Assembly (NCBI GenBank): GCA_964360435.1
Contig: CAYHVQ010000002.1
Location: forward strand, 1-51,879
Source: an uncultured Gammaproteobacteria bacterium
GTDB lineage: Bacteria; Patescibacteriota; Patescibacteriia; CAYHVQ01
Direction: 5' to 3'
DNA length: 51,879 bases
Of this stretch, positions 11,908 to 39,200 are shown one piece after another (within the stretch, counting starts at the first letter, position 1; the number at the start of each line of letters is the position of its first letter). Both the position numbers and the translations under genes were made by a program. The notes under the pieces were generated by a model, which made no database searches, was not told where the DNA came from, and saw only the letters and a list, made by a program, of their open reading frames with translations.

Positions 11908-11935
11908 GCTGGCGGTGACAACAATCACCGCCAGC
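11908..11935 (+). terminator. candidate intrinsic terminator of the blaI-blaR1-dsbA unit
   Basis: 11-bp stem GCTGGCGGTGA / TCACCGCCAGC with a 6-nt loop, followed by TTTGT. The 3' arm overlaps the last codons of the convergent 11925-12581 gene. Confidence 0.5.
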
Positions 11936-13539: not shown

Positions 13540-14334
13540 TTAATAATCTGTCGGTTGAGAGGCGCAAGGCGCAAACACTCGCTTCACCACAAAAATCAAA
13601 ACTCCGCCAATAGCCATAAGGATACTGAAATATTGCGCCGCTGTCAACCCCCACCACCGCAGATCTGACTCCGGAAGATCCGTTGCCCGCAAGAAATCCA
13701 AAAGAAATCGCACCGTGCCATACCAAACCATAAACGCCCCGAGATAAAATCCTTCGCGCTTGGAAGCAGGATACCGTTGAACCAGCCAAAAAAATGCAAA
13801 CAGGATCAGCCCATTGATCGAATCATACAATCCGGTTTCATGCCGAATAGCCCCGAAGTAACTAATCCCCCATGGCACAGATGTGAGTTTGCCTGGATGA
13901 TCGTGGATCGAGAAACATCCCATCCGGCCAATGAAGATCCCAAGGGGAAGCGCAAACGCGAGGACATCCGCGTGATCCCAAAACCGCCAGTGTTTCCACC
14001 GCATGACGAGCAGAGTTGCGACCGCGGCGCCAAGATACCCGCCGTAAATGGTTAACCCCCCCTCCCAGATGCGCAAAATCTCCAGTGGATGTGAAAGATA
14101 AAAAGATAGGTCGCCAACGATGTACGTCAACCGCGCAAAGACCATGGCGCCGAGGATAATCCAAAATCCGAGATCAAAAACCGCGTCCGCATTCACCCCA
14201 CGGCGGCGCGCCGTTTGAACCGCCAGCGCAATCCCCGCAAGAAACCCCAAGGCAACCCACAGACCCCACGCGTGCAAGGTGAGAGGTCCGATGGAAAATG
14301 TCGTGAAAGAAAAATATGGAATCGCTAATAACAT
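13540..14334 (-). CDS. lgt: prolipoprotein diacylglyceryl transferase
   Basis: A polytopic membrane protein of 264 aa with the Lgt pattern ([20 protein letters not shown]..., [17 protein letters not shown]). Confidence 0.9.
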
Positions 14335-15616: not shown

Positions 15617-16144
15617 TTACTCAACAATCAACTTCCCCGTCATCGTCGTGTGACCAGAACCGCAAATGATGTTACAAGAAAACGGGAATGTGCCAATTTT
15701 ATCAGGAGTAAATTCGACGGTCGTAGTCTTCCCTGGCGCAAGACTCGCACTGACATTGAACTCTGGAAGAGAGAACCCATGGGTCACATCCTGACTCGTG
15801 ATCAACAACTTCACCGGCGTCCCCTTCTTTACGGTGATCGCCGAAGGGCTAAATTCAAACTGCTTTGCAGTCATTGCAATGGTCTTTGTCTCGATCGCAT
15901 CTGCCACATCTTCTGCGACATCCCGAACCTCCTTTGCAACCTTATCCTTTACTGCTTCCGCCGCATCATCCGCAACATCCTTCGCTGCGTCTTTTGCCTC
16001 GTCCGCCACCTTTTCTGCGGCCTCTTGGGCAGCATCCGTAGCGCGATCAGCAGCTCGATCTGCAATATTTTCGGCCTTTTGCGCACATCCCGCACCCGTC
16101 AAAGCGACCGCAAGACCGAGGGAGAGAAACCATAAACGCTTCAT
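15617..16144 (-). CDS. lipoprotein with an A/D/E/K-rich repeat linker and a CuA-type (COX2-like) cupredoxin domain
   Basis: Signal MKRLWFLSLGLAVALTGAGC. The C-terminal domain is DVTHGFSLPEF...FSCNIICGSGHTTMTG, which matches H-x34-C-x3-C-x3-H-x2-M, the CuA ligand spacing. Confidence 0.7.
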   Translation of the reverse strand: MKRLWFLSLGLAVALTGAGCAQKAENIADRAADRATDAAQEAAEKVADEAKDAAKDVADDAAEAVKDKVAKEVRDVAEDVADAIETKTIAMTAKQFEFSPSAITVKKGTPVKLLITSQDVTHGFSLPEFNVSASLAPGKTTTVEFTPDKIGTFPFSCNIICGSGHTTMTGKLIVE

Positions 16145-16204
16145 AAAAAATCCATTAAAAATCATTAACGCTGTGGATATGATCTCATTATAGCGAATCT
16201 GGAA

Positions 16205-16459
16205 CTATCCGCCAAGAAGTTCTGTCAAGGCCTTCCGATCGTAACCGACGACAACATGATCCTTTCCCGCGTCATCCGTCAAGATGGTAACCGGAACTCC
16301 GGTCTGCCCGCTTTTGTGGCGCGATTCACTCGCCTTGGAAAAATCCTCTACAATGTTCCATTCTTCATACGCAATCCCCCGCTCCGCAAAAAACGCCTTT
16401 GTCTGATTGCAGTAGGCGCACGTTGGCGTTGTGTAAATTTGGACTCGTTTCATAACCAT
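16205..16459 (-). CDS. glutaredoxin-like protein (CAYC)
   Basis: 84 aa with VQIYTTPTCAYCNQTKAFFAERGIAYEEWNI and GVPV. Confidence 0.75.
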   Translation of the reverse strand: MVMKRVQIYTTPTCAYCNQTKAFFAERGIAYEEWNIVEDFSKASESRHKSGQTGVPVTILTDDAGKDHVVVGYDRKALTELLGG

Positions 16460-16469
16460 TTATTAACAA

Positions 16470-17228
16470 TCAGCGGACTTTTAATTCTGACGCAATAATT
16501 TGCTTCCACACATCCAGCGAAACATCGCCTTGAACGCGCTTTCCGTTCACGAAAAACGTCGGGGTGCCTCGAACACCCGCCGTCACCGCATCCGCCGTAT
16601 CTTTCTCAATTTCATCGAGCATGAGGCCGGAATTCAGACACGCAGAAAACAGCTCAACATCCAGCCCGATCTCCTTAGCATATTGTTCAAAAGCCGTCTG
16701 GGTGAGCGAAAACGGATTTTGATAAATCTTATCGTGCATTGGCCAGAAGGATCGTTGTGCATCCGCGCATTCCCCCGCTTGCGCGGCAAGTAGCGCACGC
16801 GGGTGAACATCTTGAAGCGGGTAATCGCGATAAACGAATCGAACCTCCTTTGGATACAAATAAGTCAGCTCGCGGAGTGCGGAAAAGGAAGCCTCGCTGA
16901 ACGGACATTCATAATCTTCAAACGCGATAATTTGAACGGGTGCCCCTACTGGCCCAAGAGAAGGGTCATCATCCGCGGACACATCGACAACTCGTCGCAG
17001 ATTCTCCGCCGCCTCTTTCGAAGAGGTCGTAAAACGATCCGAAACAAAAATTGCTGGATCCAGCGTTCCCGCTTGAATTTGAGCGTAATACGAACGAACG
17101 GTCAATGAAAATCCGCCAATAAGAATCAAAAAAAGAATCGCCCCGAAAAGCATCAGAACTCCCCACCAGCGGCGGTACCACTTTGGCGGTTCATAGAGGG
17201 GTAAATTCTCCGCAAAGACATCAGTCAT
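16470..17228 (-). CDS. membrane-anchored DsbA-family protein with a monothiol CPFS site
   Basis: TM helix WWGVLMLFGAILFLILIGGF. The thioredoxin-fold motif IIAFEDYECPFSEASF has CxxS instead of CxxC. Confidence 0.75.
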   Translation of the reverse strand: MTDVFAENLPLYEPPKWYRRWWGVLMLFGAILFLILIGGFSLTVRSYYAQIQAGTLDPAIFVSDRFTTSSKEAAENLRRVVDVSADDDPSLGPVGAPVQIIAFEDYECPFSEASFSALRELTYLYPKEVRFVYRDYPLQDVHPRALLAAQAGECADAQRSFWPMHDKIYQNPFSLTQTAFEQYAKEIGLDVELFSACLNSGLMLDEIEKDTADAVTAGVRGTPTFFVNGKRVQGDVSLDVWKQIIASELKVR

Positions 17229-17248
17229 GCGGGTATTATACCAGAAAT

Positions 17249-17710
17249 TTAGCGTAAACGCTCATCGAGTGTCCAGCGCACGGGCGTCATTGCCAGCCAG
17301 ACGAGCATCCCCACGAGCACAACGTCTCGCAGAAGAACTTCTTCTAGACTCGATCCCAAAAATTGCGCGTTGCCAAAACATCCGCAATCCTCAATCGTCC
17401 GCCCCCGCAGAAGATTCACTCCGAGTGCAATCATAAAACTGGCGAGCATAAGTCCGGTCACCGCCAAACTCCACTGAAAATACAAACCAACAACAAGAAA
17501 AATGCCGGTGATCACCTCAACCCACGGGAGCAATGTTCCAAAAAGAATCCCCAATGACTCGGGAAGAATCTGATACTGATGGACGATCGCGATGAACTCG
17601 GATCGCGGGGCAAGAAGCTTGAGCGTCCCTGACGTGATAAACAGCCCTCCTAAGAGCAGGCGCAAAATCAGATGTATCACAGGATGATCGAACCATCGGC
17701 GGAACGACAT
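17249..17710 (-). CDS. MauE/DoxX-family membrane protein
   Basis: Four predicted TM helices, LLRLLLGGLFITSGTLKL, and a CGCFG motif (IEDCGCFGNAQ). Confidence 0.7.
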   Translation of the reverse strand: MSFRRWFDHPVIHLILRLLLGGLFITSGTLKLLAPRSEFIAIVHQYQILPESLGILFGTLLPWVEVITGIFLVVGLYFQWSLAVTGLMLASFMIALGVNLLRGRTIEDCGCFGNAQFLGSSLEEVLLRDVVLVGMLVWLAMTPVRWTLDERLR

Positions 17711-17722
17711 GGCGACATAGCT

Positions 17723-18451
17723 CTAACGAATCTGGGAGTCAATTTTTTGCGAAAGACTTTCAACGGATCGAACACCATTGTACACCGACCCGTTGATGAT
17801 GACGGTCGGCGTTGCGCTAATTCGCCGCGAGCGCGCTTCCTGAACGTCCTGATCAATGGATGCTGTGATAGATTCGTCGTCTTGCGCAGTATCAAAGGCC
17901 GAAAGATCCAACCCCAGTTCAGCGGCATAGGATCGAAAAATTTCTTTCACGCGAGCCGAGGACTGCGTCGTCCAGTCTTCTTGATTTTCGTAGAGGAGGT
18001 CGTGATATTCCCAAAATTTACCTTGCGCGGCGGCGGCGGCGGCGGCGATTGCGGCCACTCGGCCGTAACGATGAATTGAGAGCGGAAAATCATTGTACAC
18101 CACTTTGATTTGATCGCCATACTTCGCCATCAATTCTTTTACCGTTGGTTGAAAAAATCCGCACGCTGGACACTGAAAATCTTCATATAATTCAATGACC
18201 ACCGATGCGCTTTCTCCGCCCTTAAATGGATCGGGAATTTCGGAAACGCCGCGAACCGTTCCATCCGAAGCTCCGGGCGACAGCTTGAGCAGCCCAAAAA
18301 CCACAATAACCAACGCCGCAATGACCCCCGCGCCGATGAGCCGACGATGACTCCGCGCATCCAACTGGGACTGTTGCTGTTCTGTCTGTTCTTCCTGTTT
18401 TTTCAGTTCTCGCCGTTGCTTTTTTGTGAGCGGCTGCTCTGGATTTTCCAT
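17723..18451 (-). CDS. membrane-anchored DsbA-family thiol:disulfide oxidoreductase (CPAC)
   Basis: K/E/Q-rich N-terminus, a TM helix, the motif VIELYEDFQCPACGFF, and a poly-Ala run encoded by (GGC)n. Confidence 0.8.
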   Translation of the reverse strand: MENPEQPLTKKQRRELKKQEEQTEQQQSQLDARSHRRLIGAGVIAALVIVVFGLLKLSPGASDGTVRGVSEIPDPFKGGESASVVIELYEDFQCPACGFFQPTVKELMAKYGDQIKVVYNDFPLSIHRYGRVAAIAAAAAAAQGKFWEYHDLLYENQEDWTTQSSARVKEIFRSYAAELGLDLSAFDTAQDDESITASIDQDVQEARSRRISATPTVIINGSVYNGVRSVESLSQKIDSQIR

Positions 18452-22029: not shown

Positions 22030-23256
22030 TTATTCTTTTCGCTCTTGAAGGGTTACAGCTTCCTCTCGCTCCTCGCCATCATGCCAAATTTTTAGACGAA
22101 TCTCATCTCCAGGCTGATACTTCTGAATTTCCTTTGTTAAGCTGTTCTCGGCATCCAACTTCTGCCCATTGATCTCCAAAATGATATCGTTTTCCTCAAT
22201 CCCCACAAGATCCGCCGCAGACCCCGGAATGACCGCAAGTTCTGCAGGTGTTGAACCCCGAGCAACAAGCACGCCCTCATTGTACGGGAGTTGATTCTGT
22301 TTCGCAAGCACCTCATCAATCTCGATATACCGAATCCCAAGAACCGGACGAACAATGCGGCCGAAGGTCTTAACGCTTTCCACCGCAGACTTCGCTTGAT
22401 TAATGGGAATAGCGAATGCAATGGACTCCCCCCCGCGATCCACCGCTGTGTTAATCCCCACCACCTGCCCCGCCAGATTCACGAGCGGCCCGCCAGAATT
22501 TCCAAAATTGATCGCGGCATCCGTTTGCAGAACCCCCTCCAGCGTCTGACGATCTGTGCCCTCGCCCACGGTCACGGTTCGGTTCACCCCGCTCAACACG
22601 CCTCGCGTGACGCTGTTGCTGTACTGCCCTAAAACATTTCCAATCGCGATAACAGTTTGTCCGATCTTCAACCGGTCAGAATCCCCTAATGCCACGGCTG
22701 GCAATCCCTTAGCCTCAATCTTGAGAATCGCAATATCATTCACGGTGTCGCGGGACAACACCTTTGCATCATATTTTTTTCCATCGTTCATGACCACCGT
22801 GTAGTCCGCATCCTCTCGGCTCACAACATGACGATTGGTAAGAATAAGCCCATCTTCTTGGATAATAAATCCGGTTCCGCCGCCGACTTCCTGCCGCTGG
22901 GAACCGCCCTCTGGAAATTCAAACGGATTCCCAAAAAAATAATTTCCTGAACCGTAAATATTTTGAACTTCTGCAGTCACAACAATACTGACCGCGGACG
23001 GGGTGAGTTGATCAACAACATCCACCACTACGGAATCTTCCAAAAGGGATAGCGCCTGATCTGCGTTACCTTGATCTAGTGTGGACTGATCAATATCCAG
23101 GCGACCAGCGGCTTTCTGAATCCAGGACGACACACGGTTTTCCGACGCTTGGGTAACCAAAACACCTGCCACGCCGCCGGCAATCCCGCCGACGAGAAAA
23201 CTGCCCACGAGAAGAAGCGCGAGCATCTGTTTTAGAGGGTTGAAGGGGGACGACAT
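22030..23256 (-). CDS. htrA: HtrA/DegP-family serine protease with PDZ domain
   Basis: TM anchor, catalytic motifs TNRHVV, DIAILK and GNSGGPLVN, and a C-terminal PDZ-like region. Confidence 0.9.
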   Translation of the reverse strand: MSSPFNPLKQMLALLLVGSFLVGGIAGGVAGVLVTQASENRVSSWIQKAAGRLDIDQSTLDQGNADQALSLLEDSVVVDVVDQLTPSAVSIVVTAEVQNIYGSGNYFFGNPFEFPEGGSQRQEVGGGTGFIIQEDGLILTNRHVVSREDADYTVVMNDGKKYDAKVLSRDTVNDIAILKIEAKGLPAVALGDSDRLKIGQTVIAIGNVLGQYSNSVTRGVLSGVNRTVTVGEGTDRQTLEGVLQTDAAINFGNSGGPLVNLAGQVVGINTAVDRGGESIAFAIPINQAKSAVESVKTFGRIVRPVLGIRYIEIDEVLAKQNQLPYNEGVLVARGSTPAELAVIPGSAADLVGIEENDIILEINGQKLDAENSLTKEIQKYQPGDEIRLKIWHDGEEREEAVTLQERKE

Positions 23257-24404
23257 AAAAATTGTATTAATAATTGGTAAGGATAATGCAAAATGAGTTG
23301 GAGTGCAAATCCGATCGCCGCAATCTCCCAGAACGGATTCGGAGAAAGAACGAAAAGGACGAGGGCGATATTCGATGGCGCGCTCCAGAACGCGACCGGA
23401 CGGGAAACATGCAAAATTCGCTCTGCAAAAATGCCGGTTACTGCAACAACCATCACGCGCACCGCAAATAAAATGGCGAGGTCATTCCCTATAATACCTA
23501 GACGCCACCAAGTTACACCGAGCACAATAAAAAACAATTTATCCACCACAATGTCAAGCACACGACCTACTTCGGAGGTCTGTCGAAGTTTCCGTGCAAG
23601 AATTCCGTCCGCCAGATCAAGCGCGACAAAGGTGACTGCCCAGAGGAACCATGCCCAAGACCCCTGTTCAATCGCAAAAACCGCGGGAATGATCAAAAAT
23701 GCGCGTCCGAACGTGATCGCATTCGGAAAAGTCCACAGCCCCACCGCGCCCCGAAGTCCCTCCTTCCCGTGATTCCATCGCTCTCGAATCCACGCGAGGC
23801 GGCCGAGGCTTTTTCGCAGATGAGCGCGAATTATACGCCGCTGCAGTTCAGAAAACAACAGCCATCCGTAATAAAAAACATGATTCACGCTTGCAAGGAC
23901 GGCGAACCCATAGACGAATACTCGCACAGGAGAAGGGGAAAAAAACCCGACCACGAGCGCCGCGCCCATGAGCGATAAAAGATAGGTTGTCGGGAGTCGC
24001 CCAGACCGATGCCTCCCACAAACCCATGCCCAACCTGCCATCCCGAATTGCACAACGCAACAAAGTAGAATTGGCGCCACGACCCAAAGCGGAAACAACG
24101 CCAACCAAATCGCGACACCGAACAGCCCCATTGCCGTGATTTTGTCACAAGCAGAGTCCAGCAAACGTCCGACGCGCGTTTGCTCCCCTCGGATCCGCGC
24201 CCAATGACCGTCAAAACAATCGAGTAAAACGTAAAGTGCGATTCCAATAAAAAAAACGATCGTCCACCGCTGCACCATTGCCCAACCCAAAGGGATGACA
24301 AGAAAAAACCGACCAAGGGTAAAAAGATTGGGTAACGTTCGCCATTCTAAAGATTCCGGTTCCCGCACTGCGGAATTTTTTTTCTGAAAATACGACAAGT
24401 TCAT
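23232..24404 (-). CDS. tandem (duplicated) CDP-alcohol phosphatidyltransferase
   Basis: There are two complete D-x2-DG-x2-AR-x8-G-x3-D-x3-D motifs, DCFDGHWARIRGEQTRVGRLLDSACD and DLADGILARKLRQTSEVGRVLDIVVD. Each sits in its own polytopic half of about 190 aa. Confidence 0.85.
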   Translation of the reverse strand: MNLSYFQKKNSAVREPESLEWRTLPNLFTLGRFFLVIPLGWAMVQRWTIVFFIGIALYVLLDCFDGHWARIRGEQTRVGRLLDSACDKITAMGLFGVAIWLALFPLWVVAPILLCCVVQFGMAGWAWVCGRHRSGRLPTTYLLSLMGAALVVGFFSPSPVRVFVYGFAVLASVNHVFYYGWLLFSELQRRIIRAHLRKSLGRLAWIRERWNHGKEGLRGAVGLWTFPNAITFGRAFLIIPAVFAIEQGSWAWFLWAVTFVALDLADGILARKLRQTSEVGRVLDIVVDKLFFIVLGVTWWRLGIIGNDLAILFAVRVMVVAVTGIFAERILHVSRPVAFWSAPSNIALVLFVLSPNPFWEIAAIGFALQLILHYPYQLLIQFLCRPPSTL

Positions 24405-25552
24405 CCTCCGGAGTAAAAAGATTGATAGAGCTTCAAATGCCGCTCGGCAATAACATCAGCGGCGTAAGCACGGGGATCCAATCGAGCATGCAATCGAGAT
24501 TTTCGGCGGAGTCCTTCCATAATCCCGTCCGAAAATGCGCGAGACGTGAGGCCAGTGATCAATCCATTTTTTTCAGCTTCAATTGCTTCCCGCGCGGCCA
24601 TAGAATCCACTGCAACAATCGGTAACCCCGCGGCCAGCGCCTCATAAAGCACAATCGCTTGTGTGTCGGATGTTGATGGAAAAACAAACAAATCCGCGGC
24701 GTGATAATAGGATGGGAGGGCAGACTGCGATTGAATACCCATCCAACGCACGACATCCTGACATCCGTGTTTTTCCAAAAAGACGCGAAGACGACGCTCC
24801 TCGGTTCCCGAACCAATGAAAACCGTCACAACTTCCGGACGAATACGACGGATCCGAACGATGGCCTCGCACACAAGCCGGACGTTTTTCTCTTTTCCCA
24901 TCCGACCGACGTACAACAACATCGGCTGTTTTTGGCCAATCCGAAGCGACTGGCGAACCGCGCATAACGCTTGAGCTGATGGATGCGAAAGATAACGATG
25001 AAGCTGAATGCCGGTGGGAATAATTTTAATCGGGGTTTTAACGCCTCCGCCCTCAAGAACCCCTTGAATTGCGCGCGTTGGCACAATGACCCGATCCGCC
25101 GCCTGACAAACTCGAATACTCTGGCGCTTCATTTGCTCCTGCATCCAGAATTTCGCAAAACCGAGATACCCGGCATAGACATGATACATCGTGTGAAAAG
25201 TATACACGAGTGGAAGATTCCGCCGACACGCCTCTTGCATTCCAACCGTTCCCAATAAAAACGGCTGATGAATATGGACAACATCCGGCCGCAGACGATC
25301 CAACACCCGCCGGACGACCATGGAGCCAACCGGTAGAGGGATGGCAAACGAACCGAAAGAAAACAGCCGAAAGGCGGAAACTCGCGTGACCCCCGCTTCG
25401 CGAGGACGGGAGGAAAACACGGAGCTATACTCCGGAACAATCAACTGCGCCGTATGTCCATGCCGCCGAAGCCACGCGACGGTCTGCGAAATCGAAATCG
25501 AGGGGCCGCTTAGCCTCGGCAGATAGGTATTCGAAAAAATGGCAATCCTCAT
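24401..25552 (-). CDS. GT4-family glycosyltransferase, diacylglycerol glycosyltransferase (MGS)-like
   Basis: The N-terminus MRIAIFSNTYLPRLSGPSISI resembles glycolipid synthases. The C-terminal GT1/GT4 motif is FVFPSTSDTQAIVLYEALAAGLPIVA. It overlaps both neighbours by ATGA. Confidence 0.85.
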   Translation of the reverse strand: MRIAIFSNTYLPRLSGPSISISQTVAWLRRHGHTAQLIVPEYSSVFSSRPREAGVTRVSAFRLFSFGSFAIPLPVGSMVVRRVLDRLRPDVVHIHQPFLLGTVGMQEACRRNLPLVYTFHTMYHVYAGYLGFAKFWMQEQMKRQSIRVCQAADRVIVPTRAIQGVLEGGGVKTPIKIIPTGIQLHRYLSHPSAQALCAVRQSLRIGQKQPMLLYVGRMGKEKNVRLVCEAIVRIRRIRPEVVTVFIGSGTEERRLRVFLEKHGCQDVVRWMGIQSQSALPSYYHAADLFVFPSTSDTQAIVLYEALAAGLPIVAVDSMAAREAIEAEKNGLITGLTSRAFSDGIMEGLRRKSRLHARLDPRAYAADVIAERHLKLYQSFYSGG

Positions 25553-26535
25553 AAATGTTTGAAGGCGGATGAAAACGATTCCTCTTGCTCCAGCCACCGC
25601 AGACCCAGCTCCAAAACCTGTGAACCGCCAGTCGACCCAAGAAGTACGACACCGGCATACCGCACTGCCCGCTCTTCAATCTCTGCGACTTCAGATGCCT
25701 GAACGCCATGAACAATCATGGTTTCTAAATAATGCTCCAAAAAACGATTCATCATCCGAACCGAGCTCCGCCGACCTTTCAGCGAGGTGCTGGTGAGTGC
25801 CAACAACGTCCCGACAAACAATCCCAAATCCGCTGAAGGATCCCAGACCATGGATTGCTCGAAATTAATGGGATGAGCCCGTCCCCGTCCCTGAATCAGA
25901 ATATTCGCTGGCGTCAAATTTCCACATAAAAGCACTTTTGGTCGAGTTTTACTCTGATACCAAAGCTCCTCAACGCGACGGGGCGCGCGGGTGCGAGCGC
26001 TGGCGATCCGTGGAGTAAAATAATATTGCACCAGGGCGTCATTGATGCGTTCATTCCAAAAAAAATCACTTCCGATGCCGCGCGTCCGACCATGAATGGT
26101 GGCCATAATGCGACCCAAACTTCCACCAGCAGCCATAGGGATTTTTCCTAGAAGACAATGCCCCTCAAGCGTCTGCCCTTCTCCCAAATCTGAAAGCGTC
26201 ATCACATGATTTCCGCTATCATACGCAAGGACAGTAGCGACCGTATCAACTGGAAGAATCGTTTGAAGATAATACAAGGTTTTCATTTCAAACTCTTGCC
26301 GAGCAGGATCCATCGGCGTTCCGTCCGGCGCCTGATCCGCGGCCTGACGCAAAATCAATGTTTTCTTTCCCTTGTTCGTTTCCAATTCCACGCGAAAAAC
26401 CGTATTGATCGCGGAAGCGGAAGAAAGACGCCTCGCCCGGACAACCCGCTCTGTCACAAAACTCATGTATGGACACACATGACGCAAAAGATAGTCGTTG
26501 ATTGTTTTTTCGTTCAGAGAAATGATGTCCTTCAT
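25549..26535 (-). CDS. APH/MtnK-like kinase-fold protein with substituted catalytic residues
   Basis: The layout resembles methylthioribose kinase/aminoglycoside phosphotransferase (INTVFRVELE...LILRQA; VLLCGNLTPANILI; HPINFEQ). The HGD and D-x-E positions read CGN and N-F-E. Confidence 0.6.
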   Translation of the reverse strand: MKDIISLNEKTINDYLLRHVCPYMSFVTERVVRARRLSSASAINTVFRVELETNKGKKTLILRQAADQAPDGTPMDPARQEFEMKTLYYLQTILPVDTVATVLAYDSGNHVMTLSDLGEGQTLEGHCLLGKIPMAAGGSLGRIMATIHGRTRGIGSDFFWNERINDALVQYYFTPRIASARTRAPRRVEELWYQSKTRPKVLLCGNLTPANILIQGRGRAHPINFEQSMVWDPSADLGLFVGTLLALTSTSLKGRRSSVRMMNRFLEHYLETMIVHGVQASEVAEIEERAVRYAGVVLLGSTGGSQVLELGLRWLEQEESFSSAFKHL

Positions 26536-27395
26536 GAGTTGATTAACTGCCACAAGGGCATGGTTTGACAGGAAATAAATTGCTGGCAAGGATGGAGGGA
26601 TTCCAAGCGGAAAAACTGCTCCATACTTAACCTCAAATCTTCACGGCGATGAGCGATCCCCTGCCAAGGCAAGGCAACGGTTGAGAGCATTTCATATTCT
26701 TCCGCGGAAATGATATTTTTTTGTTTTAAAGCATGCAGAAGAATGGACGCCAAACGCCCATCCACCTTCTCTCGACGCTCGTCCATGATGGGCGAATCGT
26801 TTGCAAAAATGAGGAGGTGGGAAAGATCTGACGGATTTTGAATCTCGCCACGCCGCCATGCAACAACTAAATCCGCACAGGATGGAAAACGGTTGGCGGG
26901 CAATGAGATGATTTCTCGCGTCAGAACCACGCCGCCGGAAGCCATCCATGTGTGAAGCCGTTCATACAACTCTCCAATCAACACGCGGTCGGGAAGATGA
27001 AAAAGCAGAAGATCGGAAAGAACGACATCAAACGTACCGGGAACAAAATCCGCATCTCGCCAGTCCAACTTTTCATACATCTCATTCGGATGGCGGGGAT
27101 GTTCCATAAGCTCCGTCATGAAACCATAAACATCGTCATTCGGATCCAGCACCGTCAGCGCAAACCCTCGCTCTAAGAGAAGGTCGCGAAGCTCGGGGGT
27201 GCTGCCGAGACACAAGGCACTTGGGCGCTGAAGACCGCGGGCGACATCGTCAACCCGTTCTCCCCAAATCCGCAATTGCGCGCGACACGGACGGAGCGGT
27301 GCCTCAAGATAGCGCCATCGTTCGGCACACACGGTTTCGATCTGAACAGTGTCCAAGACCAGGTTCATAGGCAAAACATGAAGGACTTTCTTCAT
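26532..27395 (-). CDS. class-I methyltransferase-fold protein (divergent SAM motif)
   Basis: ALCLGSTPELRDLLLERGFALTVLDPNDD ... FDVVLSDLLLFHLP follows the Rossmann MTase order, but motif I is degenerate. The ORF is trimmed to the ATG at 27395 (MKKVLHVL). Confidence 0.5.
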   Translation of the reverse strand: MKKVLHVLPMNLVLDTVQIETVCAERWRYLEAPLRPCRAQLRIWGERVDDVARGLQRPSALCLGSTPELRDLLLERGFALTVLDPNDDVYGFMTELMEHPRHPNEMYEKLDWRDADFVPGTFDVVLSDLLLFHLPDRVLIGELYERLHTWMASGGVVLTREIISLPANRFPSCADLVVAWRRGEIQNPSDLSHLLIFANDSPIMDERREKVDGRLASILLHALKQKNIISAEEYEMLSTVALPWQGIAHRREDLRLSMEQFFRLESLHPCQQFISCQTMPLWQLINS

Positions 27396-28133: not shown

Positions 28134-28655
28134 CTAGGGCGCGAACAAAAACTCGCACGGGACACCGGCCTCCCACTCTGCAGGCAAGCGCAGCTCAATG
28201 ATCCCCGGCAGACGCCCTTCTCTGCTGCCGACAATGGAGATCGCGCGGCGTTCGAGCGGTATCCCGCGATCCTGTTGGAATAGGAGCCATTTGAAATCCG
28301 CGACCAGCAACTTGCCGTAGAGAAGCTCGAAGTCCACGGAATAGATCGCCGAGTCCATCGCTTGATTCATGAACCACGCGGTCGTGTCCGGAGAAATCAC
28401 CGCGAAGACTCCGCCGCGGGGATTGAGCGGATTCAAGTGGGCATTGAGATAGCCTACGAGAATCGCCGGTGCGTCGTGGACCATGCGCTCGAGATCCGGC
28501 TCTGTGGAACCGCGGTCATCGTCCACGGAAAGATCGAACGTCAGCGCTCGGCCGCCGCGTTGCAGATCCGACGGAATTGCGCCGCCGGCGAACGCGGGCG
28601 CAAGCAGGATCCCTGCTCCAACCATGCCGAAGCATCTACTGAATGGTTTCCGCAT
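28134..28655 (-). CDS. secreted hypothetical protein (173 aa)
   Basis: ATG at 28655 is preceded by AAGGAGGAGG plus a 5-nt spacer. It has the signal peptide MRKPFSRCFGMVGAGILLAPAFAGGA. I recognise no family. Confidence 0.55.
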   Translation of the reverse strand: MRKPFSRCFGMVGAGILLAPAFAGGAIPSDLQRGGRALTFDLSVDDDRGSTEPDLERMVHDAPAILVGYLNAHLNPLNPRGGVFAVISPDTTAWFMNQAMDSAIYSVDFELLYGKLLVADFKWLLFQQDRGIPLERRAISIVGSREGRLPGIIELRLPAEWEAGVPCEFLFAP

Positions 28656-28783
28656 GACGACCTCCTCCTTCCAGATGGAAGGTGCGCGGACGGATATCCC
28701 CCCAGCACTACGGTCAGTGTGCCCGAGGGTTACGCCGCTGTCAAGAAAAAAAACCTGCCCAAGAAATGCTTGTGCAGGACCCG

Positions 28784-29863
28784 CTAGATCCAAGATCGCG
28801 TCGTCATCTCCTGAACGGCATCCACGATGCATTGTTTGAGGTTGTCGTCCTTGTACGCCTGCGGATTGCCGATCGCAATGCGCAGACCGACCGGAATCGG
28901 CGAAACCGAGTTCGGGAAATCCACACGCTCGAGCGGACGAATGGCAGTGAAGCGATGTCCGACAAGATCGGAAACCGCCGCCGCGCGCCGGTGACCCAAC
29001 CGGTCAAGCGCGTCTTCCAGCTTTCCGTAGTCCAACGAAGAGCTCCACAGCGTCACGACCATCGAACCGGGCGACTGAAACGTTCCGCCTACCGAGAATC
29101 CCCTCGCTTGTCCATTCGTTTGCAGAGCTTTCGCCAGCTCAAGTGCGTGAATGGCGCGGGCATAGCACTGCTGATGAATGGAGCGCTTCTGAAGACTCAA
29201 TGTCGAGGTCGGCGCCAGGAAATGGCAGCCGGTCACGAGCTGGGTTCGGCGCAGGTCTGACAGATCATGAACCGACGCCAGCGCACCGCCGAATGCGTCA
29301 TCCTGGAACCAGAACCGGTACATCGGAACAATCGCAATGGTCCGAAAGGAAGCTGCAGCCAGCGCCATCCAGATTGGCGCCATGGAATTGTAGACGACGA
29401 GATTTCCGCGGAACCGCTTCCGCTCCAAGTACTCCACGATTTCCTTCCACTCGAGACGCAGATCATGGACATCCAGCAAGAGCTGAACATCCGGAAGAAA
29501 GATCGTGCGAACCGAATCGCTGAACCCGCGCGTGACTCCGCGCAAGGACGGTTCGATCCATGTGATCTGGACGCCAGTTCTCTCGCGGGTGTGCGTCACG
29601 ATGTCCCGCGGAACCCCATATCCCACGATCATCTCTCCACCTACTGGGACGACCGACAGCGCAAGGGCGCAGGCAGATTCTGAGGTGCCGGTGAGGATAA
29701 CATGGGGAGCGTCATTGAGAATCTTCCCCACCTCCTCCTCCGCCTGATCGATGAGCGCGGCCGGTCGGTACAGATCCGATGAAAGATCCGTTGCACTGCC
29801 ACGCGCCGCACGGTAGTCCGATAGGCTGTTGTGAAAACCGGAATACCCTCCAAGCGTGCTCAT
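28784..29863 (-). CDS. Cys/Met-metabolism PLP-dependent-enzyme-fold protein, divergent
   Basis: ATG at 29863 is preceded by GGAGG plus a 5-nt spacer. By eye it is colinear with the MetB/MetC family (HVILTGTSESACALALSVVPVGGEMIV; VVYNSMAPI; LSLQKRSIHQQCYARAIHALELAKAL; PVGLRIAIGN). Confidence 0.55.
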   Translation of the reverse strand: MSTLGGYSGFHNSLSDYRAARGSATDLSSDLYRPAALIDQAEEEVGKILNDAPHVILTGTSESACALALSVVPVGGEMIVGYGVPRDIVTHTRERTGVQITWIEPSLRGVTRGFSDSVRTIFLPDVQLLLDVHDLRLEWKEIVEYLERKRFRGNLVVYNSMAPIWMALAAASFRTIAIVPMYRFWFQDDAFGGALASVHDLSDLRRTQLVTGCHFLAPTSTLSLQKRSIHQQCYARAIHALELAKALQTNGQARGFSVGGTFQSPGSMVVTLWSSSLDYGKLEDALDRLGHRRAAAVSDLVGHRFTAIRPLERVDFPNSVSPIPVGLRIAIGNPQAYKDDNLKQCIVDAVQEMTTRSWI

Positions 29864-29900
29864 GACAACCTCCATGGTGGGGTGGAACAAACCTTCCTCC

Positions 29901-29928
29901 ATCCTAAAGAATTTCTTTGATATGTCAA
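29901..29928 (-). promoter_or_regulatory. candidate promoter for the GC-rich three-gene insert
   Basis: The minus strand reads TTGACA (29928-29923), a 16-nt spacer, then TAGGAT (29906-29901), directly after the ftsZ terminator hairpin. Confidence 0.35.
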
Positions 29929-29976: not shown

Positions 29977-31206
29977 TTACATCATCTTTTTCCGGATAAA
30001 TGCCGGAATTTCCAAATCTTCTTCCGTTTGTTGCGGCGGCTGTTCGCGTTCTATGGAGCGGCGCGGCAATTGTTCGTTATCATCCACAACATTCGAGCGA
30101 ACAAATCGCGGCTCGGATTCCGGACGCCGAACATATTCATCTGCCACTTCGGTTTGAAGGAAGGAAGGCCGCGCATGCACAACCGGTTCCTCGGTTTCAA
30201 AGGCGCTTTTTGTGCGTCCGCCGATTTTATGCGTTGCTCGGCCGGAAGCGCCAAACCCCGTTGCAACAACGGTCACGCGCAACTCCTCGCCAAGAGTCTC
30301 GTCCACCACCGACCCAAAAATCACCCGCGCATTCGGATCCGCGTGTTCCGTGATAATCTTTGCCGCTTCATTCACCTCAAACATTCCCAGATCTGGCCCG
30401 CCGCTGATCGTAAAGAGAATTCCTTTTGCTCCCTCGATAGACAATTCGAGCAACGGACTGTCAATCGCGGCCTTCGCGGCCTCTATTGCCCGATTCTCGC
30501 CCGTCCCGATACCAATACCCATAAGCGCGGAACCGGTATTCTCCATAATCGAGCGGACATCTGCAAAGTCCACATTGATCAGTCCCGGAACCGTAATGAG
30601 ATCGGAAATCCCCTGAACCCCCTGACGCAATACATCATCCACCACCGCAAAGGCTTCCAGAAGAGACGTCTTTTTATCAATCACCTGCAGGAGGCGATCA
30701 TTTGGAATCGTAATAATGGCATCAACCTTTTCAGCGAGTTCGCGATAACCGGACTCGGAAATTTGCTTTCGCTGTTCCCCTTCAAAACTAAACGGCCGCG
30801 TTACAACAGCAACCGTGAGCGCGCCCTGCTCTTTGGCAATATCTGCCACCAGCGGCGAGGCGCCGGTTCCCGTTCCTCCACCCAATCCACAAGTAATAAA
30901 AACCATGTCAGCCCCCTTCAACGATTCAGAAATTTCTTCTTGATTTTCCTCTGCCGCCTTCCGACCAACGTCCGGATCCATCCCCGCGCCAAGACCGCGT
31001 GTCGTTGCTTTCCCAATATGGATTTTCGTGTCTGCGCCAGAGTGATGGAGCGCCTGGGCATCGGTATTGATCGCCAAAAACTCCACGCCTTTCACTTTCG
31101 ATATAATCATCCGATTAATAGCCGCTCCACCGGATCCCCCAACACCAATGACCTTAATTTTTGCAAATGTTTCGACTTCCGGTTTAACTTCCATACGTTT
31201 TTTCAT
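29977..31206 (-). CDS. ftsZ: cell division protein FtsZ
   Basis: Motifs [17 protein letters not shown] and [18 protein letters not shown], plus the C-terminal FtsA-binding peptide [11 protein letters not shown]. Confidence 0.97.
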
Positions 31207-33252: not shown

Positions 33253-33624
33253 TCAGGATGTAAATGAAAACAGTGAGCGAACATACGGCCAGAAGATCAC
33301 GATCCCAATGACCGCGGCCGAAAGAGAGGTGAGTAAGACCGCGGCCGCCATCGTGTCCTTGATAATTTCTACATAATGATGCATCCGAGGCTTTAATACA
33401 TCAATCATGGCCTCAAAGGTAGTGTTTAAAATTTCCAGTGTAAGAACGGCGGTGATCACAAGGATTAACACAATCGCCTCCGCCCGGCTCACATGAAACC
33501 ACCCCATCAGAAGAATCACGAAAGCGCCTACGGCAACCTGAAGGCGAAAATTCTGCTCATGCTGAAAGACGAACAGGAAACCTTTGAACGCGTATCGAAC
33601 GCTATGGAAAAACTTACGAATCAT
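33253..33624 (-). CDS. dgkA: diacylglycerol kinase / undecaprenol kinase family (DgkA)
   Basis: 123 aa with three TM helices and the motifs FKGFLFVFQHEQNFR and LEILNTTFEAMIDV. Confidence 0.85.
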   Translation of the reverse strand: MIRKFFHSVRYAFKGFLFVFQHEQNFRLQVAVGAFVILLMGWFHVSRAEAIVLILVITAVLTLEILNTTFEAMIDVLKPRMHHYVEIIKDTMAAAVLLTSLSAAVIGIVIFWPYVRSLFSFTS

Positions 33625-35491: not shown

Positions 35492-36208
35492 TTAAGATTC
35501 GTTTTGTAAAAATATGGAAAGATCCAAACGCCCAGGACCCAACGGATTATACCCTGCTCGAATTTCAAGACCGTCAAGGTATCCGTCGTTGTCCGTATCC
35601 GGATTCAGAGGATTTGTTTGATGGGTGGTCTCCATCAGATCACTCAAGCTGTCATGATCGGAATCCGAATCGTCCGGATCGGTTCCTAAACGAGCCTCTT
35701 CCTCCGCAGAGAGTCCGTCTTGATCGGCGTCCAATGGCGAAAGATTCACCGTCGCGACATTCGCATTGCTGTTTGAAGAATTCGTGATGACGGTTGGCGT
35801 ATTCGTATTCCTCACGGTGTTGGTATTTTCATTCCCACTTTCCTCTAAGACGGATTGCCGCAACACCCCGGTAAACATCCACAGCACAATGCCTAAAAGA
35901 AGAACCAGTACGATGACAAACGCGCCCCACAATAACACACGATTACTGACCCGGATCGTTGTCGACCTCCGGGAGGGATTTTCCGGAGCTAGGGGAACCG
36001 GTGGTGGCGGTGGTGGAGGCGGACTCGGACGCTGCCGCTCATGCGGACTCAATGTCCCTCCACCCTCCGCCATCACATCCTGTCGCAACACCTCGCCCAC
36101 CTTCTCTAGTGGCGCCTGCGGGGAAGGTTCCGAGATCGGAGGGGGCGATGAAGAAACCCCGGACGCGGGATCCGTATCTCCAAAAATATCTTCAAGGGGA
36201 TTCGGCAT
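35492..36208 (-). CDS. bitopic surface protein with a Pro-rich N-terminus and thrombospondin-type-3-like repeats
   Basis: A PPPPPPPPVP tract, the TM helix LLWGAFVIVLVLLLGIVLWMF, and DADQDGLSAEEE...DTDNDGYLDGLE. Confidence 0.7.
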   Translation of the reverse strand: MPNPLEDIFGDTDPASGVSSSPPPISEPSPQAPLEKVGEVLRQDVMAEGGGTLSPHERQRPSPPPPPPPPVPLAPENPSRRSTTIRVSNRVLLWGAFVIVLVLLLGIVLWMFTGVLRQSVLEESGNENTNTVRNTNTPTVITNSSNSNANVATVNLSPLDADQDGLSAEEEARLGTDPDDSDSDHDSLSDLMETTHQTNPLNPDTDNDGYLDGLEIRAGYNPLGPGRLDLSIFLQNES

Positions 36209-36211
36209 GGT

Positions 36212-39200
36212 TTAGAATGTTTCAGGAAGTGAAAACGCGGGATTGGACGGATCAATGCGATAATTATAGCATGAGCAATCACTGTCGCCGGAACAGTAAT
36301 CCACGCCTCGCACATCGGATTGAATCCAGTTGCCTTGCGGATGCGCATACTCCAGCGCGGTGAACAATTCTGCCGTGTCCGCATTACTGTACCGATAGTG
36401 ATACAGCCGCGCCCCGGTCTCGCATTGGAACAACTTTGCGCTTTCATTCCAGCAGGTTTCTTCGGCATAACCCAATTCCTCGACGCAACGGGATGCGTGA
36501 ACAAAGCCCGGAGCCGGATCATCTGGTAAACTTTTTTTCAAATCTCGACCGAGTGTCTGATTCCAAGACGGCCAGCGACTCGTCGAATGTGATGGGAGAT
36601 ACGTCCCAGCGTTGAGCATCGGGTAGGTGCTATTTGTTTCTTTATATTCCGCAAGAAAACTGCCGATTTCCCCCAAATCCGTAATCCGCTTGGTATCCCG
36701 AACAAGACACGCTTTATTCGAATCGCTTCCACACATCCCATCCACATTCGTGTTAAACACCGCCTGATCGAGAAGCTGTTCGTAAATTTTCACAAGATCC
36801 GAGTCCGTACTCCCGTCCGCGTTTTTCGCGTACGAGAATACCATGATATTCGGGAACGGTGCATACCCATTCATCAATGCGTTCGTAGCCAACGTGTACG
36901 TCGTGCGTCCTTGAAAAATCGCCGCGTATCCATCAACCGTGCGGCTACCCAACGACCCGGATTTCTCCAAAATACTTTCATTCAAATCATACCAGCGCTT
37001 GGGAGACAAAAAGCGATAATTTTCCCAAATCTGGACGCCGACCGCCAAATCCTCCTTCTCGCCTTCGCCCGGCAGAACAAAGAACCGCTGCTGCAACAGT
37101 TCATCTTTATCCGAATCGCGGGGGGTGTAATCCACAACGTAATCATTCCCCACATTGCCTTCTAAATAAGGAAGGAGGTTCGCTTCATCGTTTCCTCGGC
37201 AGTAGGAAAGACGATAATGATACGCGGCATCATCTTGAAATTCCCAAGGGTGTTCACAAAGATCCACCGTCACATTCACTGTCGAACTCCCTTCACCTGC
37301 ATAGCCGTACTCTTGTTCTGTAATCTCCTCATTCACGCTCGCTTCCACAATCGCCGTTCCATTCTCATTCGCGGCCGAAACATCCGTCCAATCCCACGGA
37401 AGATTCGGCCGGGTGTTCAGGGTCAAAAGATTGTCCGGATCGTCCGCCAAGACTACCCACGCAAATGCGGCGTTCAGGACATGATCATCCTCGCTGACGG
37501 CGCGCGCGGTATAGCGATGCGGAATGCCCGAAGCGGTAAAAAGATCGGAGGCCGTCTCTATGCCATCCACGTCAATCCGAACATCATCAATATTGCAAAT
37601 ATCCCGACCCACATCAAAGGTTTTGACGGCGTCGCCATTCATGCCAACATGTTGCTTGGAGAGCACGCCTTCAGGTCTGTTGTCGGATGTATTGGGATCT
37701 CCCTTGACGGTGATGCGGTACGTTGAGCCGGCATCGAGCAGGGCGGGATCGAGCGTGAAAACCGCACGCGTCTTGTGAATCACTTGTTCCCCAAGGGTCT
37801 CACTCAACACCTCTGGGAGCACGGAAAAATTTACCACACACCACTGCGCGGCATTTGCAGAAATGAACGGCCGCCGCAGGATGGCAAAAAATTTCTGCCA
37901 ACGAGATGTTCCCGCATCTACCACATCATTACAGGATTGGACATCCGTATAGTACTCGATCGCAAACTGATCTTCTGTGATCGTATTGACATCCATCTCT
38001 TGATCGAATGTCACCGAAACTTGCGAATTCCGGCAAACCGGATCTGGATCGCTCACGGGTTCATAACGCTCCACCGTCGGGCGCGGATAGCAACACTTCA
38101 CGGGACTCAACCCTCCGCATCCCAGTGTTGCAACATCGGAACATTCATTGTCGGCTTGGCACCCGCACTGCGGTGCCTGAACCGTAAACGGCGCAGGAGT
38201 ACTTGCTTGCGCGTCTTTCTCAACCGTCACCGTCCCCAATCCCTCCGTCATATTGCGCGGCACGCGACAACGGATCTCACTTTCGGACCAAAGGTCAATC
38301 GTGGACTGCCGAATGTCCCCGCCAACCGCAAAATCTACTTGCCCGTCTCCACGTGCATCGTCAAAATTCTTTCCACGCAGTTTCACCGCATCATCATCAT
38401 ATCCCACCTCGGGATCCACAGCGCACACATCCGGCCGATCCACCGACAACACTTCAAACCCCGGGAATGGACTGGACTGGGATCCGCCTTCCGACACATC
38501 GCGGGTCAACGTGACAGTTCCATTCACCGCGTCATCCGTAAGATCCGACGTCTGCTCATTCGGCACTTCAATCACCACGCGCGTATTGGTCCAGGTATTC
38601 GCGCCGCAAACATTTTCTGGAGGAGTAAGACCTCGAGTGGCCGGCGGACCGTTGAATGTCACGATTCCAGATTTTTTTCCGAGCAGACATCCATTGATCC
38701 ACATCCAATCGCCGATCGCGTTCTTTTCCTCAATATCATTCATCACCGGCGTACAGAAACCGTCCACGCATTGACTTCCTGGACATTGTAGACCCACCTC
38801 GCAATCTTGATCTGTCTTACATGTAAACCCACCGATGGTCACGGTTAGATGTGCGGCATCTTCTTTCCCGCCATCTTCAACGGCGCGAATATCCGACTCG
38901 CCGTCCTCGCTCGTCAATTTCACCGTCGCGGTATGATCAAAATCCGGAACACCTCCGCGCGTGATGGATTGAACGGCCGGAGAAACGCTCGCGTTCCAGC
39001 TGAATGTGTACGGCACTGGATCTCCCCGTTGTTCGCGTTCGGAGCAGGCGGTATTATCTAAATAAGCGTCCGCGCGATAAGGGATGTCGGCCGTCGTCAC
39101 TGCTAAATAGTCATCCGGCTCCACGGCAATCCGCGACAACGCGCACGGAGTCGCATCGTTCTTCGTCTTAAATCTCCATGAAAACGCATCAAACGCGATA

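Follow-up and report, generated by a model that had tools for sequence, protein, structure and literature searches.

Among the closest described systems, the mycobacterial operon that encodes the phosphatidylinositol-phosphate (PIP) synthase PgsA1 and PimA likewise combines a CDP-alcohol phosphatidyltransferase gene with a GT4 glycosyltransferase gene. Moreover, GpgS, the GlcNAc-phosphatidylglycerol synthase of the P. aeruginosa gpgSDF operon, has been shown experimentally to glycosylate phosphatidylglycerol and provides a precedent (NCBIfam model NF053787) for a glycosyltransferase of this type acting on the product of a PgsA-type enzyme (PMC12713373).

The locus compared here with these systems belongs to a contig of groundwater Patescibacteria (CPR) and lies on the minus strand of a stretch of 51,879 nucleotides that was analysed as a whole (the window); the organism is a Patescibacterium, in line with the CPR-like host proposed by an earlier, sequence-only reading. 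ORFs and sequence agree with that reading on four minus-strand genes, which code for a methyltransferase-like protein of 287 aa (26532..27395), an APH/MTR-kinase-fold protein of 328 aa (25549..26535), a GT4 (GT-B) glycosyltransferase of the lipid-glycosyltransferase type of 383 aa (24401..25552), and a tandem, i.e., fused double, CDP-alcohol phosphatidyltransferase of 390 aa (23232..24404). They are followed on the same strand by the gene of an HtrA/DegP-type serine protease with a PDZ domain (22030..23256; Pfam Trypsin_2 and PDZ_2), which shares 25 nt with the tandem transferase gene, as had been reported. ATGA stop/start overlaps join the methyltransferase-like and kinase-like genes (26532..26535), the kinase-like and GT4 genes (25549..25552), and the GT4 and tandem transferase genes (24401..24404, preceded by GGAGG), and bear out the proposed translational coupling. 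Such overlaps occur at 6 of the 32 same-strand junctions of the minus strand and are, therefore, unexceptional by themselves in this genome; their conservation across other lineages is the part that exceeds chance. All four genes have a dN/dS of about 0.09-0.24. The context includes, on the same strand, a prokaryotic diacylglycerol kinase gene (dgkA, 33253..33624; Pfam DAGK_prokar, E 7.8e-28) and the gene of the prolipoprotein diacylglyceryl transferase Lgt (13540..14334; Pfam LGT, E 7.9e-56), an enzyme that consumes phosphatidylglycerol.

With moderate confidence, the GT4 and the tandem transferase are interpreted as a two-gene membrane-lipid head-group module accompanied by two clade-specific accessory genes. 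The pair recurs in divergent Patescibacteria (26-35% identity), though so far not in most lineages. Over the window and loci L001, L002, L008, L087, L088, and L099, the identities span 26-42%, and the junction of the pair is an ATGA overlap in all of these loci except L008, where the two genes overlap by 14 nt. Furthermore, the order GT4 - tandem transferase - htrA is found in L001, L005, L008, L087, and L099, although the constant place upstream of htrA might mean plain synteny rather than function. Conversely, synteny of the methyltransferase-like and kinase-like genes is confined to the narrow clade of the window (L001, L005, L006), with both ATGA overlaps retained in L001, and neither gene is present in the more distant core-bearing loci L008, L087, and L099. 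The conserved unit thus consists of two genes, plus htrA, and not of four: the GT4/transferase half of the head-group module envisaged by the sequence-only reading is well supported, while the extension to a single four-gene unit does not hold. In a distant member of the tandem-transferase family, a 4-nt overlap couples the gene to a GT2 instead of a GT4, hence a glycosyltransferase partner recurs.

The GT4, whose N-terminus is MRIAIFSNTYLPRLSGPSISI, matches Pfam Glyco_transf_4 (E 2.5e-26) and Glycos_transf_1 (E 2.8e-32), and among NCBIfam models it scores 137.9 bits over its full length with MGlcDAGSynMgs and 92.6 bits with GlcN_PG_synth, both below cutoff. The same ranking, with the monoglucosyl-diacylglycerol (MGlcDAG) synthase first and GpgS second, is obtained for all four GT4s tested (window, L008, L087, L099), none of which reaches an NCBIfam equivalog cutoff. 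These ranks support a predicted grouping with lipid glycosyltransferases and not with cell-wall or protein glycosyltransferases, and uphold the likeness to diacylglycerol glycosyltransferases suggested earlier. The protein contains the motif GRMGKEKN (nt 24884-24907). At nt 24641-24667 its EX7E motif takes the form D-x7-E, the initial Asp of which is common to the orthologs from L002, L008, L088, and L099; identity among the orthologs is 33-42%.

The tandem transferase matches PF01066 in two stretches (122.5 bits). It has two CDP-alcohol transferase motifs, as had been noticed, and both are complete (D-x2-DG-x2-AR-x8-G-x3-D-x3-D): one lies at residues 62-87 in the N-half (residues ~1-198; motif at nt 24144-24221), the other at residues 263-288 in the C-half (residues ~199-390; motif at nt 23541-23618). 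An alignment of the two halves over 67 aa gives 40% identity (E 9e-11); both halves have hydrophobic segments, and a basic linker joins them (residues ~181-232; 10 K/R vs 3 D/E). Family members align end to end; orthologs P0011, P0014, and P0015 lack the conserved Arg of the N-half. In the C-half, every aligned member has the full motif, except for a conservative D to E change at the third Asp in P0016. The best PDB relative of the family profile is S. aureus PgsA (7DRJ), for the C-half (E 1.1e-12). Neither half meets any NCBIfam equivalog cutoff, and the top family alternates among ClsA, AIPS, PgsA, and PIPS across orthologs. Among 1.84 billion representatives, the family makes up some 25-30 clusters, and literature searches turned up no description of it; it is read, from its sequence features, as a separate subfamily of a known kind of enzyme, previously undescribed as far as these searches show.

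The two upstream proteins had been assigned to methyltransferase and kinase folds with degenerate motifs, and the degeneracy is evident in both, whereas the fold labels are less secure. The methyltransferase-like protein has no Pfam match at E<=0.01, and its sub-threshold matches, namely Methyltransf_25/11/12 (E 0.002-0.14), phosphoethanolamine N-methyltransferases in the PDB (E 0.0016/0.004), and PADLOC mad2 (E 1.9e-5), all fall on the class-I methyltransferase core at residues ~73-160, a core with a degenerate glycine loop for SAM (LGSTPE, nt 27192-27209). It has only 4 homologs among 5.8e9 proteins, and its gene is under purifying selection (dN/dS 0.11 vs L001 and 0.085 vs L006). The kinase-like protein of the window has no Pfam match and NCBIfam assigns it 28.9 bits with MTRK over residues 8-175 and an LxmK match at residues 188-261, but its 66% identical ortholog P0005 exceeds the Pfam APH cutoff (32.5 vs 23.2 bits). 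The sequence LILRQA (R63, nt 26341-26358) occupies the place of the catalytic K of APH kinases, CGNLTPAN (nt 25903-25926) replaces the HxD..N motif, and INFE (nt 25858-25869) replaces the DxE motif; a non-significant alignment to PDB 7S3L sets HCD against CGN and IDWD against INFE, and the substitutions are also kept in P0005. Only 2 homologs are detected, and this gene is under purifying selection as well (dN/dS 0.15). On these substitutions, the protein is likely a pseudokinase, and since the catalytic K/D/D residues are absent, it probably supplies no phosphorylated head-group precursor. AF2 models are unusable for both the methyltransferase-like (pLDDT 37.6) and the kinase-like protein (pLDDT 39.4).

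In the proposed mechanism, the GT4 would act as a peripheral lipid glycosyltransferase, and the tandem transferase would be an integral-membrane enzyme whose two CDP-alcohol phosphatidyltransferase domains are joined by a cytoplasmic basic linker. Solved members of the CDP-alcohol phosphatidyltransferase family are dimers, and the fusion may accordingly represent a covalent pseudo-dimer. The PgsA-like C-half most likely uses CDP-diacylglycerol as the phosphatidyl donor and glycerol-3-phosphate or a related alcohol phosphate as the acceptor, which would yield an anionic phospholipid. The N-half could be a further catalytic site that uses another acceptor, or it could serve as a structural partner. 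Next, the GT4 may glycosylate diacylglycerol, as MGS does, or the phospholipid product, as GpgS does. The 4-nt overlap would result in coupled, roughly equimolar synthesis of the two proteins, which fits two membrane enzymes that act in succession on lipid backbones obtained by salvage. Both dgkA and lgt share the window with the module. The window ORFs scanned include no cdsA, pgpA/B, or plsC, and as only 52 kb are available, the supply of CDP-diacylglycerol is assumed. Lastly, the upstream kinase-like and methyltransferase-like proteins are read, from the alignment of their motifs, as putative pseudoenzymes; they would bind ligands or regulate the module as partners without catalysis or of an atypical kind, rather than carry out precursor-making steps.

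The analogy with the mycobacterial pathway drawn by the sequence-only reading, in which one transferase half would make PI-phosphate and the GT4 would mannosylate PI as PimA does, is unlikely. A single-sequence PDB search with the tandem transferase of the window does retrieve the mycobacterial PIP synthase (E 3e-5), the best NCBIfam matches of the N-half are AIPS and PIPS (42 and 38 bits), and PimB' is among the PDB matches of the GT4 (E 4e-6). However, the tandem transferase reaches 58 bits with PIPS against a cutoff of 170, the top match of the ortholog halves shifts to PgsA or ClsA, and the family profile favours PgsA; PimA is not among the GT4 matches at E<=1e-5, the lipid glycosyltransferases MGS and GpgS outscore all others, and the window ORFs scanned showed no inositol-phosphate synthase. 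The analogy is thus left without specific support, as PIPS/AIPS, PgsA, and ClsA swap rank far below cutoff. To the same low degree of probability, the pair might serve an envelope polymer instead of bulk membrane lipid, with the GT4 making a glycolipid anchor and the transferase the phosphatidylglycerol that donates glycerophosphate to a lipoteichoic-acid-like polymer, an account that overlaps the two-gene module because it invokes the same enzymes for a different end product. In its favour, the LTA glycolipid-anchor family IagA/BgsA (51-85 bits) and TuaC are also among the matches of the GT4, the window contains an LCP (LytR_cpsA_psr) ligase besides dgkA, and in most loci the pair adjoins htrA, which codes for an envelope protease; yet IagA/BgsA and TuaC score below MGS and GpgS, and neither the window ORFs scanned nor the gene tables of the related loci hold an LtaS-like or TagF-like gene.

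Quite unlikely is a single novel pathway of all four genes, in which atypical but active kinase-like and methyltransferase-like enzymes would make a phosphorylated and/or methylated alcohol, e.g., a head group of the phosphoethanolamine-to-phosphocholine type, for the transferase to attach. The ATGA overlaps that join the four genes and are kept in L001, and the purifying selection on all of them, would fit such a pathway, as would the choline and ethanolamine kinases included in the APH fold and the match of the N-half to cholinephosphotransferase (E 8e-8). The phosphoethanolamine N-methyltransferases are the only PDB relatives of the methyltransferase-like protein, but their match is sub-threshold and confined to the generic methyltransferase core, and the SAM loop is degenerate; likewise, the kinase-like protein has R, N, and N for the catalytic K, D, and D, the operon has no cytidylyltransferase, and both upstream genes are gone from every more distant locus with the core. 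Very unlikely, finally, is a bifunctional tandem transferase that would combine a PGP synthase with a CDP-DAG-dependent cardiolipin synthase, two sites for two successive phosphatidyl transfers. The window protein and most of its family keep both motifs intact, and ClsA, the CAP-type cardiolipin synthase, is the first or second NCBIfam match of several halves; nevertheless, no ClsA score exceeds 56 bits, where the cutoff is 240, the PGP phosphatase needed between the steps was not seen among the window ORFs scanned, and the loss of the N-half Arg in some orthologs argues against an obligatory second reaction.

Compared with the mycobacterial PgsA1/PimA operon, the two-gene module has no acyltransferase gene between the two partners, its transferase is a tandem, and its GT4 is not PimA-like. 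The alpha-monoglucosyl-diacylglycerol synthase (alMGS, NF049988) is the best family for the GT4 and three orthologs, with near-full-length alignment and a shared N-terminal MK/RIAxFxxxYxPxxxG pattern, but the GT4 has Asp for the first Glu of EX7E and is not an alMGS equivalog, because these proteins score 138-182 bits against a cutoff of 400. Similarly, GpgS is second best for all four at 85-118 bits against a cutoff of 480, and the pair differs from gpgSDF in having neither deacetylase nor flippase genes. The kinase-like protein resembles pseudokinases of the APH/methylthioribose-kinase/choline-kinase fold at the level of the fold family (APH in the ortholog, MTRK in the N-lobe): it retains the catalytic-loop Asn as N211, while Arg, Asn, and Asn replace Lys, the catalytic Asp, and the Mg-binding Asp. 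PgsA and the tandem transferase share the Pfam family (PF01066) and the same eight-residue metal and CDP motif, although PgsA is a single domain of ~190 aa and the window protein a two-domain fusion of 390 aa, whose score of 51.7 bits falls short of the TIGR00560 cutoff (109); unlike PgsA, the tandem family has conserved residues of its own (PxT, NH..YY, P...WS...N, HYPYQ), which define it as a separate subfamily.

The object of note in this stretch is a rare, conserved pair of genes, a GT4 glycosyltransferase and a fused double CDP-alcohol phosphatidyltransferase, and not a four-gene pathway. The sequence-only reading had proposed a translationally coupled lipid head-group operon, and the arrangement that it described is borne out. 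Specifically, the methyltransferase-like (MTase-like) gene (26532-27395), the kinase-like gene (25549-26535), the GT4 gene (24401-25552), and the tandem transferase gene (23232-24404), all on the minus strand, are joined by three ATGA junctions, and the tandem transferase gene shares 25 nt with htrA (22030-23256), as reported. ATGA overlaps are found at 6 of the 32 same-strand junctions of the window and are thus frequent in this genome, so the overlap as such is ordinary here; scans for promoters and terminators yielded nothing above shuffle expectation. The operon proposal is supported in part: what stands is the observation itself together with the conserved GT4/double-transferase pair, whereas a four-gene pathway is unlikely.

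The distribution of the genes underlies this distinction, as the supposed syntenic unit of four genes is found together only in close relatives. All four genes and all three ATGA overlaps recur in the related contig L001 (JGI 3300045072), whose four proteins are 56-69% identical to those of the window and whose FtsZ is 93% identical; contig L005 also has all four genes, broken into fragments on an error-rich sequence, and the short contig L006 covers the first two genes only. These three contigs and the window form one narrow clade. In contrast, three more distant loci keep the GT4 and the tandem transferase alone, in the orders ftsZ - GT4 - tandem transferase - htrA - prfB (L008, Kerfeldbacteria CG08, PEXU01000030), GT4 - tandem transferase - htrA (L087), and ftsA - ftsZ - nrdR - RNR - cobA - GT4 - tandem transferase - htrA (L099). 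The pair is also present in locus L002, followed by a metallophosphoesterase gene, and in locus L088, where it is cut by the contig ends. Across the distant loci, identity to the window is 33-42% for the GT4s and 26-35% for the tandem transferases, and the junction between the two genes is ATGA in five loci (L001, L002, L087, L088, L099) and a 14-nt overlap in L008. The overlapping pair is deeply conserved and yields, by co-translation, members of two lipid head-group enzyme families.

At 45 loci of related Patescibacteria (among L007-L086), ftsZ and htrA lie between 154 nt and 9 kb apart, and the gap is usually filled by nrdR-RNR-cobA or empty; in the window, this variable slot, from htrA to ftsZ (29977-31206), holds seven genes, including the four-gene run. 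In an ftsZ-anchored scan, L008 alone among the 80 nearest species representatives has the pair at this locus, a rarity owing to which the pair gives no general answer for CPR lipid biology. A genome-contig search with a three-sequence transferase alignment returned no match, but its patterns were overly narrow: L008, recovered by the ftsZ-anchored scan, escaped it, so that absence from GTDB cannot be claimed; a metagenome-contig scan gave weak single-domain matches only. Separately, the segment 28001-30000, with a GC content of 0.575 against 0.50-0.52 on both flanks, is a possible acquired insert in the variable interval between ftsZ and htrA; its ORFs 28784-29902 and 28134-28832 are without Pfam or PADLOC match, the larger also without PDB match, and have counterparts in the window's clade alone (52-55% identical in L001).

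The tandem transferase matches PF01066 in two stretches, at 122.5 bits against a gathering threshold of 22. Searched with the pattern D-x2-D-G-x2-A-R-x7-8-G-x3-D-x3-D, it contains the two CDP-alcohol motifs noted earlier, complete as D-x2-DG-x2-AR-x8-G-x3-D-x3-D at residues 62-87 and 263-288; both are intact in the window organism and invariant in three orthologs. The two halves of the window protein share 40% identity across the motif region (E 9e-11), and the hydropathy profile has several hydrophobic segments per half and a basic linker, which counts 10 K/R versus 3 D/E. Members of the PF01066 family are dimer-forming polytopic membrane proteins with about 6 TM segments per domain, and because the solved members are homodimers, the fusion would represent a covalent pseudo-dimer. 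Searched exhaustively by HMM, 1.84 billion cluster representatives yield 15 proteins at E<=1e-30 and about 25-30 proteins that match both halves in one stretch, and a word-indexed search of 5.8 billion proteins finds 2 homologs besides the window protein. Family members align end to end; the C-half motif is complete in every aligned member, with a conservative Asp-to-Glu at the third Asp of member P0016, and the 'AR' of the N-half is AF or AK in members P0011, P0014, and P0015. The fused transferase is a natural experiment on whether both protomers of a homodimeric family must be catalytic, and the loss of the Arg from the N-half alone in some orthologs is a hint that a protomer can become structural.

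Outside Patescibacteria-type loci, family members sit in other gene contexts: the gene for P0017 overlaps that of a GT2 glycosyltransferase, not a GT4, by 4 nt and is coupled to it, and P0021 and P0023 have no glycosyltransferase among their called neighbour genes. At the loci of the distant GT2-coupled member (L090, 7381-9131; L091, 372-2197), an overlapping gene for a 215-aa protein of unknown function follows, and Ku, esterase, and enoyl-CoA hydratase genes lie nearby. Neither a tandem CDP-alcohol phosphatidyltransferase nor a GT4 + tandem pair in CPR turned up in the literature searched.

The GT4 protein has both domains of its fold (Pfam Glyco_transf_4, 93.2 bits; Glycos_transf_1, 112.1 bits) and the phosphate-binding motif GRxxxxK (GRMGKEKN), and the first Glu of its EX7E motif is Asp (DTQAIVLYE), a D-x7-E also present in the orthologs of L002, L008, L088, and L099. 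For this protein and the orthologs in L008, L087, and L099, alpha-monoglucosyl-diacylglycerol (MGlcDAG) synthase ranks first, at 138-182 bits over nearly the full length, and the GlcNAc-phosphatidylglycerol synthase GpgS ranks second for all four, at 85-118 bits and below cutoff; the two outrank MshA, TuaC, and polysaccharide glycosyltransferases, with all scores below cutoff. GpgS has been experimentally shown to glycosylate PG (PMC12713373). By this ranking, the GT4 groups with lipid glycosyltransferases, as the sequence-only reading had supposed, and not with cell-wall or protein glycosyltransferases. A marginal match to a GT4-conflict Pfam model (25.9 vs 26) was set aside as explained by general GT4 similarity.

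The two upstream genes code for proteins with very few relatives. Among 5.8 billion proteins, the kinase-like protein has 2 homologs, one of them a truncated form of the window protein itself from a sibling assembly, and the MTase-like protein has 4 (word-indexed search). The dN/dS of both against L001 or L006 is about 0.1-0.15, similar to that of the GT4 and approximate since dS is near saturation; given these low values, both are maintained proteins and not decaying genes. The kinase-like protein of the window has no Pfam APH (PF01636) match even at E<=10, and its 66% identical ortholog P0005 passes this model (32.5 bits vs 23.2). Among NCBIfam models, methylthioribose kinase matches the N-lobe of the window protein and LxmK its residues 188-261. 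The positions of the catalytic K, of HxDxxxxN, and of DxE with the Mg-binding Asp read LILRQA, CGNLTPAN, and INFE, strings conserved in the ortholog, and a weak, non-significant alignment to PDB 7S3L (E 1.7) pairs CGN with HCD and INFE with IDWD. Because the catalytic motifs are substituted, the protein is a probable pseudokinase, as judged from its motifs. A PDB profile search with the kinase-like alignment gave nothing at E<=1, and hhalign against Tn5 NPTII produced no usable alignment. In the sibling assembly L003, codon 285 of the kinase-like gene reads TAG instead of GAG (position 8722; window 25683). Decay of the gene was considered and rejected, the L003 contig having 3x coverage; since 5 of the 6 differences from the window are G->T, the TAG is probably sequencing damage or error and not a real nonsense allele.

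The matches of the MTase-like protein are all sub-threshold and fall at residues ~73-160 (Methyltransf_25/11/12, phosphoethanolamine N-methyltransferase, PADLOC mad2). Pfam Methyltransf_* models score 16.5 bits in the window and 19.1 in an ortholog against a gathering threshold of 27, one ortholog being without match, and PADLOC makes no defence-system assignment beyond the generic MTase-core match. The motif I loop reads LCLGSTPE in place of the expected E/DxGxGxG, and the acidic residue at the beta-2 end (TVLD) is present. AlphaFold2 models from shallow alignments reach a pLDDT of 37.6 for the MTase-like protein (4 sequences) and 39.4 for the kinase-like protein (2 sequences) and are unusable.

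The earlier assignment of the contig to CPR is right, given its FtsZ neighbours and its gene content: the nearest GTDB relatives by FtsZ are MAGs labelled Candidatus Kerfeldbacteria, Uhrbacteria or 'Patescibacteria group', and the window carries the housekeeping genes typical of a compact genome (ftsA/ftsZ, prfB, comEC, hisS, lepB, der, pth). No GTDB species representative has an FtsZ more than 70% identical to that of the window, whose sequence is also recorded as contigs in Hainich groundwater metagenomes (Hain_H52, 0.2 µm fraction). The presence of lgt (13540-14334), for the phosphatidylglycerol-consuming lipoprotein diacylglyceryl transferase, and of dgkA (33253-33624, diacylglycerol kinase, in a ybeY-dgkA-ftsA arrangement) indicates that the organism handles PG and DAG, as Lgt uses the former and DgkA recycles the latter.

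Elsewhere in the window, a small nucleotidyltransferase gene (11925-12581; NTP_transf_3 / NTP_transferase / weak IspD-like), unlinked to the operon, could make an NDP-sugar or a CDP-alcohol. A candidate giant surface or adhesion protein of 1924 aa (36212-41986) starts with a T4SS-pilin-like region, continues with TIG and Big_5 domains, and adjoins a TSP3-repeat protein (35492-36208). The extracytoplasmic disulfide toolkit is unusually rich for a small genome: a cluster at 15617-18451 comprises two DsbA-like thioredoxins (16470-17228, 17723-18451), a MauE/DoxX membrane protein, and a cupredoxin-like protein, and a third DsbA-like gene lies at 11095-11889. A UPF0182-family membrane protein gene (1013 aa, 48790-51831) lies within a second GC-rich stretch (0.58).

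To our knowledge, CPR/Patescibacteria are without fatty-acid synthesis and are assumed to be lipid scavengers. In the reading preferred here, the PgsA-like C-half would use CDP-DAG to make an anionic lipid of the PG type, the GT4 would glycosylate DAG or the phospholipid product of the C-half, the N-half would act as a second site or as a structural protomer, and the upstream pair would be non-catalytic accessory proteins. Such a salvage-and-rebuild scheme fits the context of Lgt and DgkA in the window. A more elaborate version is unlikely: the double transferase would be bifunctional, with two different active sites, and would build with the GT4 a compound phosphoglycolipid from salvaged DAG (candidates are phosphatidyl-glycosyl-diacylglycerol, glycosylated PG, and lipids of the cardiolipin type), and the two upstream proteins of the window's clade, a dead kinase and a degenerate methyltransferase, would be ligand-sensing regulatory subunits of this membrane complex. 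The pair bears on how CPR/Patescibacteria build and individualise their membranes, as a co-translated pair of predicted head-group enzymes suggests that some lineages at least determine for themselves which polar head groups their salvaged backbones carry, and it is a small, clonable two-gene target for lipidomics.

Four rival explanations are each unlikely. A four-step novel head-group pathway would use the whole coupled run, and has to be set beside the confinement of that run to one narrow clade and the substituted motifs of the kinase-like protein. For a PI/PIM pathway, the GT4 does match PimB' (4e-6), but PimA is absent from its PDB matches at E<=1e-5, and the earlier analogy with the PI synthase/PimA pairing is therefore without specific support; at the transferase, the tandem protein scores 58 bits against the PIP synthase equivalog NF045883, below its cutoff of 170. 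In an LTA-precursor supply, the lipids of the pair would serve as LTA precursors. The best family of the GT4 is the MGlcDAG synthase equivalog NF049988, at 137.9 bits far below the cutoff of 400. A bifunctional PGP/cardiolipin synthase would perform two phosphatidyl transfers in succession, yet the tandem protein reaches 56 bits against a cutoff of 240 for the CAP-type cardiolipin synthase ClsA (NF053678). Against the PgsA equivalog TIGR00560 (cutoff 109.1), it scores 51.7 bits, with each half at 30-31. No half reaches any NCBIfam equivalog cutoff, and the top matches of the halves flip among ClsA, archaetidylinositol-P synthase, PgsA, and PIPS (26-61 bits). A profile built from 10 family sequences gives a clearer picture: cholinephosphotransferase, PIPS, and PssA are matched to a similar degree by the N-half (E about 1e-7), and the best solved relative is S. 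aureus PgsA, matched by the C-half at E 1.1e-12.
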